IMG/VR virus record: IMGVR_UViG_3300044568_004364
Strand: one strand, 5' to 3'
DNA: 64,000 nucleotides
From: a virus
The notes under the pieces are model-generated. The model did not search any database. It was not told where the DNA came from and saw only the letters and a list, made by a program, of their open reading frames with translations. Shown in pieces: positions 39,638 to 45,554 of this stretch. Position numbers and translations under genes: made by a program. The first letter of the stretch is position 1, and each line of letters opens with the position of its first letter.

Positions 39638-39957
39638 TGGTGGAGACGACGGGAGTTGAACCCGTGTCCATGACGTGTGCGATTATACAATCTACAACTT
39701 ATTCTCATTTATTCAGACGAGACTCTTAGACACTTATCGTTGTGTCACGACAGCGTTATTCACAATGCTGTACAAATAGATACCGTTCGTGGTATCAACT
39801 ATCCTATGCCGTGCGAATGACAATATAGGAGTCATGTCATTCGACTCACTTAAGCAGCGAGAGCAAGTGTATTTTTGCCGTTTAGTTTTTTGACGAAGGG
39901 AGTCACCCGTGTGTTGCAATATAATCTCTCATGTCATGTCGAAACCATGACATCCCC
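39638..39957 (-). ncRNA. ssrA: tmRNA, tag peptide (A)GKNTLALAA
   Basis: 5' GGGGATG...TTCGAC; 3' GACACGGGTTCAACTCCCGTCGTCTCCACCA; G3:U70 pair; tag frame 39879-39850 ends LAA*. Confidence 0.93.
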
Positions 39958-40827: not shown

Positions 40828-40853
40828 ATTGTTATTTATCTATTTATAAAAAT

Positions 40854-40927
40854 TGGTAGCCCATGCTGGTATCGAACCAACTTCTCACGGGTCAAAGCCG
40901 TGTGCATTACCTTTATGCTAATGGGCA
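40854..40927 (-). tRNA. tRNA-Gln(TTG)
   Basis: CACGG-CTTTGAC-CCGTG; CCA. Confidence 0.88.
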
Positions 40928-41102: not shown

Positions 41103-41176
41103 TGGTAAGGGATGAAGGTAACGCTCCCTCGTATATTGCGTGTAAAGCAATCGTTCTACTTTTGAACTAATCCCCC
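41103..41176 (-). tRNA. tRNA-Val(TAC)
   Basis: ATTGC-TTTACAC-GCAAT; non-canonical T-loop; CCA. Confidence 0.82.
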
Positions 41177-41192
41177 ATTATAAAAATTTGAA

Positions 41193-41271
41193 GGCCCGTT
41201 AACATCAACACTTTGGAGATATTGACATGCGAGTTCAACCGACGGGCCAAGCGGTTTAGACACCCTCTCGC
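41193..41271 (-). ncRNA. Unannotated pseudoknotted RNA
   Basis: GCGAG/CTCGC, AACCG/CGGTT, loop GGCCCGT pairing with 3' ACGGGCC, plus an intervening hairpin. Confidence 0.5.
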
Positions 41272-41276
41272 AAAAA

Positions 41277-41287
41277 TGGTGCACTCT
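41277..41287 (-). pseudogene. 3' remnant (AGAGTGC-A-CCA) of the disrupted tRNA-Arg(ACG)
   Basis: Exact complement of the 5' acceptor strand GCACTCT at 42285-42279. Confidence 0.8.
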
Positions 41288-41344
41288 CAATTCATCAGTT
41301 TATTATATATTATGTACATTTATTTTAAATTATATAATACAAAA

Positions 41345-41419
41345 TGGTGGCCTGTTGAGGAATCGAACCTCAATTTGGAGTTTCGTAAACTCTCGTCTTA
41401 TCCATTGGACCAACAGGCC
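41345..41419 (-). tRNA. tRNA-Arg(ACG), intact, inside the HNH insertion
   Basis: GGCCTGT/ACAGGCC; AGAGT-TTACGAA-ACTCC; CCA; starts 5 nt after the HNH stop. Confidence 0.88.
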
Positions 41420-41424
41420 TTTTT

Positions 41425-42198
41425 TTATTTATGTCTTCCAAATTTCCATCCATCAGGAGGTAATTCATTTTTTTCAATACGTGCAGATTTTGTTCCATTG
41501 TTAATCCAAACAGTATCAACACTTGAAAATTTCATATTACCAGAATCAATTTGTTTACGCATTCGAATTTTAGCCGAATCAGAAAGTTTTTTTCTAGTTT
41601 TTTTATCTAGTGTTTTACCTTTTCTATTTTTTATTTTTAATAAATGAAGACATTCAGATGAGCACGTTTTATATGTCTTAGAACATTTAAGCTTTAAAAA
41701 AGTACAATTACATATAACACATGTAAAAATTATTTCTATATTTTTCCACTTATTTCTTCCTAAAATCCATCCTTCTGGTATTTTGTCTTCTTTTAATATT
41801 TTTTTATTTTCTTGTAATTCAATATTGCACATCCAACGAGTTCCATATTGTGAATTGCACTCACCACTTTGAGAAATTTTCATACGTTTTGATGCCAATT
41901 TAGAGTGATGTTTTCGAATTTCTTCATACAGACGAGAATTCTTAATATAGGATATACTGCGCTCTTCACATCGCATCGCCATCATATGGCATGCATGAAT
42001 TGTTTGACTATTCTTATGAATCTTATAAAGAAGGATGTGGGCGATCCAATGTTCTCTTCCAGTTAAAACTACTAGATTAGAAGTATCATCAGATCCGCCC
42101 ATTGATTTCATCAAGATATGGTGCTTTTCAGTATATCCAGTTGCCGGATTATTTTGTCGATATGAAATTAGATTATCGTAAATACGTTGGTAGTTCAT
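41425..42198 (-). CDS. Free-standing HNH homing endonuclease (MobE-like)
   Basis: MNYQRIYDNLI..YTEKHHI..SMGGSD..SNLV.LT.REH..AH.LL; two W.N...ENK/SAR..P.GW..GR repeats; own TATAAATA at 42204-42211. Confidence 0.9.
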   Translation of the reverse strand: MNYQRIYDNLISYRQNNPATGYTEKHHILMKSMGGSDDTSNLVVLTGREHWIAHILLYKIHKNSQTIHACHMMAMRCEERSISYIKNSRLYEEIRKHHSKLASKRMKISQSGECNSQYGTRWMCNIELQENKKILKEDKIPEGWILGRNKWKNIEIIFTCVICNCTFLKLKCSKTYKTCSSECLHLLKIKNRKGKTLDKKTRKKLSDSAKIRMRKQIDSGNMKFSSVDTVWINNGTKSARIEKNELPPDGWKFGRHK

Positions 42199-42226
42199 AA
42201 ATGTATTTATACAAATGTGAACTTTA

Positions 42227-42285
42227 CGAACCCCGGACCTCACGGTTCGTAGCCGTGTGCTCTGATCCAGCTGAGCTAAGAGTGC
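42227..42285 (-). pseudogene. 5' part of tRNA-Arg(ACG), interrupted in the T-loop
   Basis: GCACTCTTAGCTCAGCTGGATCAGAGCACACGG-CTACGAA-CCGTGAGGTCCGGGGTTCG, then unrelated AT-rich sequence. Confidence 0.85.
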
Positions 42286-43419: not shown

Positions 43420-43494
43420 TGGTAGACGTTCTGGGTAATGCTCCCAGTTCTCATGGTTAAAAGCCATGTGCTTCACTATTAAAGCTTAACGTCC
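43420..43494 (-). tRNA. tRNA-Lys(TTT)
   Basis: CATGG-CTTTTAA-CCATG; CCA. Confidence 0.82.
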
Positions 43495-43667: not shown

Positions 43668-43746
43668 TGGTGGTTGTGATAGGATTTGAACCTATATACT
43701 TAGACTTATGAAATCTACTTCTTACCAAGTCGAAATTCACACAACC
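43668..43746 (-). tRNA. tRNA-Met/Ile2(CAT), divergent D-arm
   Basis: GGTTGTG/CACAACC; TAGAT-TTCATAA-GTCTA; CCA. Confidence 0.7.
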
Positions 43747-45479: not shown

Positions 45480-45554
45480 TGGTTGCGGCGGGTGGGATTC
45501 GAACCCACGTGCACGGCTTATGAGACCGTTGAGTTACCTCTACTCTACCCCGCG
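45480..45554 (-). tRNA. Initiator-type tRNA-fMet(CAT)
   Basis: 5' CGCGGGG with C1:A72 mismatch; loop CTCATAA; CCA. Confidence 0.85.

Follow-up and report, generated by a model that had tools for sequence, protein, structure and literature searches.

Architecture of the split tRNA-Arg locus

The window analyzed here is a stretch of 64,000 nucleotides (nt), given as one strand, from an uncultured phage (IMG/VR record IMGVR_UViG_3300044568_004364). It contains a transfer RNA (tRNA) gene, tRNA-Arg(ACG), that is interrupted by a cassette encoding an HNH homing endonuclease, P0001, together with a second, complete tRNA-Arg(ACG). All features of this locus lie on the minus strand (Table 1). The 5' piece of the resident gene is normal in its acceptor, D and anticodon arms, variable loop and 5' T-stem and ends with the T-loop bases TTCG at 42227. 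In Rfam, this stub is a sub-threshold tRNA match (42218-42285, 25.1 bits against a gathering score of 29), and with its 3' end completed by computer it is called Arg(ACG) by ARAGORN. Directly upstream of the stub, a hairpin and a T-run are visible; a terminator scan made no call there.

The insert begins right after GGGGTTCG and comprises, in order, a short leader, the HNH gene, the carried tRNA and an AT-rich spacer, beyond which the 3' remnant of the resident gene follows. Within this remnant, AGAGTGC is fully complementary to bases 1-7 of the stub. The carried tRNA is identical to the stub at 38 of 70 aligned positions (about 54%); it has AGGTTCGATT instead of the resident GGGTTCGAAT, and its anticodon stem is also different. 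The window holds one copy of the cassette, without tandem amplification.

A previous sequence-only reading of this DNA had proposed that a tRNA-Arg(ACG) gene starting at 42285 halts in the T-loop, that its matching 3' end reappears at 41287-41277 with most of the 3' T-stem gone, and that a complete, divergent tRNA with the same anticodon lies 5 nt past the HNH stop codon. All three descriptions hold: the 5' piece spans 42285..42227, three of the five 3' T-stem bases present in an uninterrupted relative (metagenome contig L074) are absent, and the downstream tRNA is recovered by both ARAGORN and Rfam.

Table 1. Features of the split tRNA-Arg(ACG) locus and of P0001, with the broken and carried tRNAs of related cassettes
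Feature	Position	Strand	Remarks
Resident tRNA-Arg(ACG), 5' piece (dead stub)	42227..42285	-	59 nt, through G57 of the T-loop; equals the 5' part of the intact L074 tRNA
Insert	42226..41290	-	937 nt, in the T-loop of the resident tRNA-Arg(ACG)
Cassette leader (left end of insert)	42199..42226	-	28 nt; begins TAAAGTTC; contains TATAAATA at 42211..42204
HNH homing endonuclease gene, P0001	41425..42198	-	Intact open reading frame of 257 amino acids
Carried tRNA-Arg(ACG), complete, divergent	41345..41419	-	5 nt past the HNH stop; ARAGORN Arg(ACG); Rfam RF00005, 54.8 bits (gathering score 29)
Spacer (right end of insert)	41290..41344	-	55 nt, AT-rich; not in empty alleles
Resident tRNA-Arg(ACG), 3' remnant	41277..41289	-	TG + AGAGTGC + A + CCA: last two T-stem bases, 3' acceptor strand, discriminator A, CCA
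P0001, N-terminal half	~amino acids 1-152		Nuclease
P0001, C-terminal half			Cys4 zinc-ribbon-like motif and WINNG..P.GW repeats; presumed DNA-binding part
Cassette of L079 (P0005)			Broken Gln(TTG); carried Gln(TTG)
Cassette of L081 (P0006)			Broken Leu(TAA); carried Leu(TAA)
Cassette of L084 (P0010)			Broken Trp(CCA); carried Trp(CCA)
Cassette of L200 (P0012)			Broken Pro(TGG); carried Pro(TGG)
Cassette of L201 (P0013)			Broken Lys(TTT); carried Lys(TTT)
Cassette of L202 (P0014)			Broken Gly(TCC); carried Gly(TCC)
Cassette of L205 (P0017)			Broken Gly(TCC); carried Gly(TCC)
Cassettes of L002-L007			Broken Val(TAC); carried Val(TAC)
Cassette of Vibrio phage VB_VaC_SRILMA (cultured)			Thr(TGT) broken in the anticodon loop; carried Thr(TGT)
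Cassettes of L077 (P0002) and L203 (P0015)			Broken Arg(ACG) differing from that of the window; at the stop, an odd tRNA-like sequence whose anticodon loop is of the Arg type

Empty and filled alleles of the insertion site

Using a 28-31-nt word from the stub, we located empty alleles in one viral contig (L001) and three metagenome contigs (L072, L073 and L074). Each carries a single intact tRNA-Arg(ACG) at the syntenic site, next to the same upstream open reading frame end and hairpin, and neither an HNH gene nor a second tRNA-Arg was found near the site in any of the four. L074 is 95.5% identical to the window up to 41289 and 93.3% identical from 42227 on, and homology breaks exactly at these two positions. 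Where the window has the insert, L074 holds the six bases AATCCC; the window has thus lost three bases of the T-loop and three of the five that form the 3' side of the T-stem. Synteny with L074 is complete: a 100-nt element on the downstream side is shared, and after it come tRNA-Val, Ser, Cys and Gln; downstream homology to both L001 and L074 is continuous with the 3' remnant. The filled allele of the window is also present in two further contigs, L075 and L076, and L083 represents a third allele without any tRNA-Arg at this site.

A presence/absence polymorphism therefore exists at one defined site, which is filled in the window, L075 and L076 and empty, with clean junctions, in L001, L072, L073 and L074. 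Because empty alleles exist, the locus is an insertion, and in the window the carried tRNA lies within the inserted segment. The stub and the remnant lack the six T-loop and T-stem bases and therefore cannot form a tRNA; as judged from these bases, the resident tRNA-Arg gene can no longer yield one. The sequence-only reading had anticipated that empty alleles would contain an intact tRNA, which is what these four contigs contain; the opposite pattern, in which HNH-free relatives keep both the split gene and the second tRNA, was not seen in them.

Among cultured phages, a near-identity search with the whole region gave no match, nor did a distant search in which the carried tRNA served as query; in viral contigs, no exact match was found to a 39-mer of this tRNA. 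The 14-mer junction GGTTCGTAAAGTTC had at least 115 matches in viral contigs, none of them with an HNH homologue, so that all are attributed to chance.

Sequence and predicted structure of the HNH endonuclease

P0001 matches PHROG 655, 'homing endonuclease', over residues 1-231 (E value 3.8e-42), and scores 19.6 bits against Pfam HNH_5, below the cut-off of 27.5. A tblastn search returned 972 phage records, the top ones annotated as homing endonuclease, and the best T-even matches bear a MobB-like annotation at about 39% identity. The sequence-only label of 'MobE-like HNH' is thus apt in that the protein is Mob-like in general, through PHROG 655, and too narrow in naming MobE, since the best T-even matches are MobB-like. 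The HNH motif occupies residues 26-54, in which N41, H50 and H54 are invariant and H26/H27 nearly invariant among 23 homologues, and it aligns to the HNH motif of McrA in a PDB sequence search. The Pfam and PHROG matches of P0001 are to HNH, and the GIY-YIG family is absent from them; an NCBIfam search of P0001 gave nothing useful.

The AlphaFold model of P0001 has a predicted local distance difference test score (pLDDT) of 87. When this model was examined for a beta-beta-alpha-metal fold, Foldseek against the PDB returned weak HNH-domain rows only (Cas9 HNH and McrA, E > 0.3), and VIA-align returned helical matches only (Z < 6). With the PDB sequence search, these comparisons yielded no clear structural relative of either the whole protein or its C-terminal half. 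An identical protein is encoded on 14 contigs, the longest of 171 kb. Based on the intact open reading frame, the conserved HNH residues and this distribution, the HNH gene looks functional.

Recurrence of the cassette in other tRNA genes

Relatives were sampled as 11 HNH homologues taken by rank (on contigs of at least 5 kb), together with IMG/VR matches and cultured-phage matches. A recurring layout was observed, in which a 5' tRNA piece broken in the T-loop precedes a conserved leader and the HNH gene, whose stop codon is close to or inside a complete tRNA. The same T-loop break position and a leader of 27-29 nt before the start codon were present in 10 of the 11 rank-ordered homologues. 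In all nine T-loop cases with an ARAGORN-called tRNA at the stop, the anticodon of the stub equals that of the carried tRNA, and with the cultured Vibrio phage the count becomes 10 of 10. The matched set covers Arg, Gln, Leu, Trp, Val, Pro, Lys, Gly (twice) and Thr, whereas in arrays with about 25 anticodons a match by chance has a probability of about 0.04 in each case. Beyond tRNA-Arg, at least ten tRNA types are affected by related enzymes. The proposal that HNH homologues travel with a tRNA is consequently borne out, and the tRNA shares the anticodon of the broken piece upstream. Stubs and carried tRNAs are 52-61% identical, and they are therefore old alleles rather than recent duplications. 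Additionally, in many relatives the HNH stop codon falls inside the carried tRNA, with an overlap of 1-31 nt.

Several copies depart from this layout. L077 and L203 contain the Arg-type cassettes nearest to that of the window over the full length. In both, the tRNA-like sequence at the stop (L077 2232-2308; L203 about 2235-2310) overlaps the last 13 or more HNH codons, and it has a long variable region, a poor D-arm and the anticodon loop GCG in L077 and ACG in L203; the sequence represents a tRNA that is either degenerate or atypical. In L083, P0007 (1409-2140, 194 amino acids) has the same zinc-ribbon motif, follows a complete tRNA-Gln and is flanked by a 26-nt direct repeat made up of the tRNA 3' end and the TATAAATA of the next gene; positions 40838-40866 of the window correspond to the empty allele for this insertion. 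Rhizobium phage LG08 has a tRNA-Asn at the HNH stop and no clear stub upstream.

Modular organization of the cassettes

In cassettes within other tRNAs, the leader is conserved in both length (27-29 nt) and sequence. DNA homology between the window cassette and ten others begins at the first base of the leader and ends at about nt 481-487 (about amino acid 152) in nine of the ten, and at nt 581 in the truncated L083 copy. At the protein level, the Arg-type enzymes of L077 and L203 agree with P0001 by 67% and 63% in the N-terminal half and by 44% and 40% in the C-terminal half. The Gln- and Leu-type enzymes match P0001 at 79% over the N-terminal half, yet at only 10-15% over the C-terminal half. 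By these alignments, the C-terminal half tracks the tRNA attacked and not the N-terminal tree. Furthermore, the motif GGGTT(C/T)(G/A) ends seven of eight stubs, occurs in about a quarter of the window tRNAs and is found in none of eight carried tRNAs.

A proposed mechanism of insertion and replacement

We consider it highly probable that this free-standing homing-endonuclease cassette occupies a tRNA gene by bringing a substitute, and not by self-splicing. The 'break and replace' arrangement put forward in the sequence-only reading is supported by the empty alleles, by the position of the carried tRNA inside the insert and by the matched anticodons in relatives. In such a scheme, the enzyme would cut or nick the intact allele of a related phage during co-infection, within the T-arm or close to it. 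The nuclease half, N-terminal and conserved, would act on the GGGTTCG-like core, while the variable C-terminal half would read tRNA-specific sequence further 5', probably in the anticodon arm. Repair would then copy the cassette, guided by homology on both sides: on the left by the stub with the DNA upstream of it, and on the right by the 3' remnant with the DNA beyond it. The occupied allele would be immune because its site is split, and the carried tRNA gene would be immune because it is divergent, both in AGGTTCGATT versus GGGTTCGAAT and in the anticodon stem. Moreover, the carried tRNA is predicted to restore the lost decoding, so that the phage would pay little.

The specificity half and the immune tRNA are adjacent on the DNA and are therefore expected to be inherited together as one exchangeable 3' module, and where the stop codon lies inside the carried tRNA, as in many relatives, the two would be hard to separate. 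It may be speculated that RNase P processing of the carried tRNA would also cut the nuclease mRNA and could lower the nuclease level.

With confidence only a little better than even, we extend this proposal to a large modular and gene-drive-like family for tRNA genes. Its 5' module would consist of the leader and the HNH part, and its exchangeable 3' module of a DNA-binding half fused to an immune tRNA with the same anticodon, often with the stop codon inside the tRNA. Such a family would be a main force in the turnover, duplication and fragments of phage tRNA arrays and, besides introns and inteins, a third way to live in essential genes. If this is true, whichever module selects the tRNA gene for destruction is always accompanied by its antidote.

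Several observations weigh against the interpretation as a cassette that breaks and replaces a tRNA gene. The absence of the core motif from the carried tRNAs is not significant alone (about 0.1 by chance), and an intact tRNA-Met of the window (45484-45553) has the exact 12-nt core GGGTTCGAATCC; the core alone therefore cannot be the target, and further contacts must decide. The flanks of filled and empty alleles are 93-95% identical rather than near-identical, so that the insertion is not shown to be recent. Among the relatives, the broken Asp(GTC) piece of L204 (P0016) is not accompanied by a carried tRNA in the 1.5 kb downstream; the odd cargo of L077 reaches 30.7 bits and that of L203 has no Rfam tRNA match; the truncated HNH gene of L083 (P0007) sits after a complete tRNA-Gln; and Synechococcus phage S-CBWM1 lacks a tRNA at the HNH stop. 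Finally, when relatives were searched for the acceptor complement followed by NCCA, a convincing 3' remnant was found in the window only. Since most relatives have no clear 3' remnant, they give no proof of a carried tRNA located within the insert.

Alternative explanations

A different account, which we regard as unlikely, is intronless homing with imprecise repair, in which the HNH gene would normally lie in the spacer upstream of a tRNA gene, would cut the allele of this tRNA in a competing phage and would be copied along with the adjacent gene; the stubs would be accidental scars, and the carried tRNA would be a hitch-hiking immune allele instead of a replacement favored by selection. It draws on the behavior of free-standing phage endonucleases, which co-convert flanking markers and obtain self-immunity through adjacent-gene differences (SegB, PMC2330249; its introduction describes SegE), and it would accommodate both the missing 3' remnant of most relatives and the lack of a clear broken piece upstream in LG08 and S-CBWM1. 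However, the same T-loop break and 27-29-nt leader in 10 of 11 homologues are too regular for accidental scars, and both junctions in the window are clean, with six bases lost. This account differs from occupation by substitution mostly in emphasis, and the same enzyme behavior is predicted by both.

Far less probable is the idea that the carried tRNA is a variant resisting a host tRNA-cleaving defense, which the nuclease spreads or amplifies as SegB does with tRNA-Tyr against Septu. Amplification of a tRNA gene by SegB overcomes Septu, and an association of SegB with tRNA genes is widespread (PMC13096335); the carried tRNAs diverge strongly from their resident counterparts, in the anticodon stem and T-arm among other parts, which would also suit a resistant variant. 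The single cassette copy without tandem amplification argues against it, no data tie the locus to a defense system, and the breakage of specifically the resident isoacceptor gene is left unexplained. We give hardly any weight to the view that there was no insertion into a working gene, that is, that the locus is an intron-containing or split tRNA gene or arose by decay and duplication in the array. Arrays do hold fragments and duplicates, for example at 2730-2815 in L002 and in its duplicated Arg, Asn and Ser genes. Yet empty alleles with an intact gene exist, the joined pieces lack three T-loop and three T-stem bases and allow no tRNA, carried tRNA and stub agree at only about 54% of positions, and no Rfam intron family was found in the region even at E <= 1. 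For practical purposes, this view is refuted by the empty alleles.

Relation to known systems

To our knowledge, homing endonucleases are thought to persist in important genes only through self-splicing introns or inteins, or to lie between genes. The cassette would represent a third strategy, in which a tRNA gene is destroyed and a divergent copy, predicted to work, is carried along. This may explain the duplicated isoacceptors, tRNA stubs and fast gene turnover of phage tRNA arrays, and would offer a model, found in nature, of a drive that links a cutter to a resistant allele. Moreover, the link between the C-terminal half and the target suggests natural DNA-binding modules, each for one tRNA gene, and points to retargeting.

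As reported, T4 SegB, a GIY-YIG enzyme, recognizes the T-arm sequence GGTTCRANTCC, cuts in tRNA genes and drives the inheritance of its tRNA region (PMC2330249), and SegB of T4 and T6 spreads with or amplifies neighboring tRNA genes (PMC2330249; PMC13096335). Similar to SegB, the cassette is a free-standing nuclease gene in a phage tRNA array, and its insertion point lies inside the same T-arm motif. In contrast, its enzyme is an HNH nuclease, probably alike in site of action and not a member of the SegB family. SegB is located between tRNA genes; interruption of a tRNA gene and fusion to an isoacceptor replacement, both seen in the cassette, are not reported for it. Additionally, SegB has relaxed specificity for many tRNAs, whereas each cassette pairs with one anticodon.

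The HNH enzymes of the T4 MobA-E and I-HmuI type belong to the same family by profile (PHROG 655) and share the modular organization of N-terminal HNH and C-terminal DNA-binding modules. Known Mob genes are located between protein-coding genes or in introns, whereas the cassette is inside a tRNA gene. We know of no Mob enzyme described as splitting a tRNA gene while carrying a tRNA. Similar to mobE in nrdA of Aeromonas phage Aeh1, the cassette is a free-standing HNH gene inside an essential-type gene, without intron or intein. The Aeh1 case ('genes in pieces') is said to be a gene split without splicing whose function is kept. There, the protein halves reassemble; with the cassette, by contrast, the broken gene remains inactive and a complete further copy of the gene is provided. 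Integrative elements enter the 3' ends of tRNA genes and carry a duplicate 3' end. Like them, the cassette targets a tRNA gene and brings sequence predicted to serve tRNA function. These elements, however, rely on an integrase with attP/attB and rebuild the same gene, whereas the cassette combines a homing nuclease with a complete divergent gene.

The role of Mob enzymes at such loci has been stated as unknown (PMC13096335), and HNH genes have been remarked near tRNA arrays, without further comment (PMC8421152). A literature search for a split tRNA with a carried isoacceptor returned only the SegB papers and general remarks on HNH genes and tRNA arrays. Our results support a free-standing homing endonuclease that lives inside an RNA gene in a manner for which we found no description.

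Promoter motif and neighboring features

The helicase of this phage has only about 30% identity to that of any cultured phage (Tenacibaculum, Chryseobacterium and Sphingomonas PAU phages), and by this comparison the phage is not a T-even. The motif TATAAATA of the leader occurs 25 times in the window against 8.1 expected, a three-fold excess; 24 of the 25 copies are on the gene strand, mostly just upstream of open reading frame starts, and the motif is probably a promoter motif of this phage. The 'late promoter' noted in the sequence-only reading is confirmed as an enriched and strand-biased motif in the leader, and it is better termed a T4-late-type motif, since the phage is not a T-even. Thus, a promoter motif of the T4-late type is probably in use here in a phage distant from the T-evens.

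Directly after the tRNA-Arg site lies a 100-nt element (41177-41276, minus strand), which is kept in L001, L074 and L083 and absent in L072 and L073. Two adjacent compensatory changes, GGCC to GATC, occur on both sides of a predicted long-range helix, and the fold energy of the element is no better than that of shuffles (z -0.37). Possibly, the element encodes a small structured RNA comparable to the stable RNAs from the tRNA region of T4. Three tRNAs missed by ARAGORN were found by Rfam on the minus strand at 41106-41176, 43423-43494 and 43674-43741 (49.7, 44.4 and 36.3 bits, respectively), the first of which is a tRNA-Val(TAC) with an unusual T-loop. Furthermore, the end of the tRNA array contains a transfer-messenger RNA (tmRNA; 39638-39957, minus strand; Rfam RF00023, 93.8 bits), for which ARAGORN gives the tag peptide GKNTLALAA; tmRNA-like matches also occur in the related loci L083, L084 and L200.

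Finally, in L002 (1227-1979 and 2553-2627), an IMG/VR phage with a 34-tRNA array, a GIY-YIG (Seg-like) open reading frame is followed 10 nt later by a tRNA-Arg(ACG), and a second tRNA-Arg(ACG) lies 570 nt beyond the first. Asn(GTT) and Ser(GCT) are also duplicated in this array, and loose tRNA fragments are present at about 2730-2815. Other nuclease families may thus carry tRNAs too.

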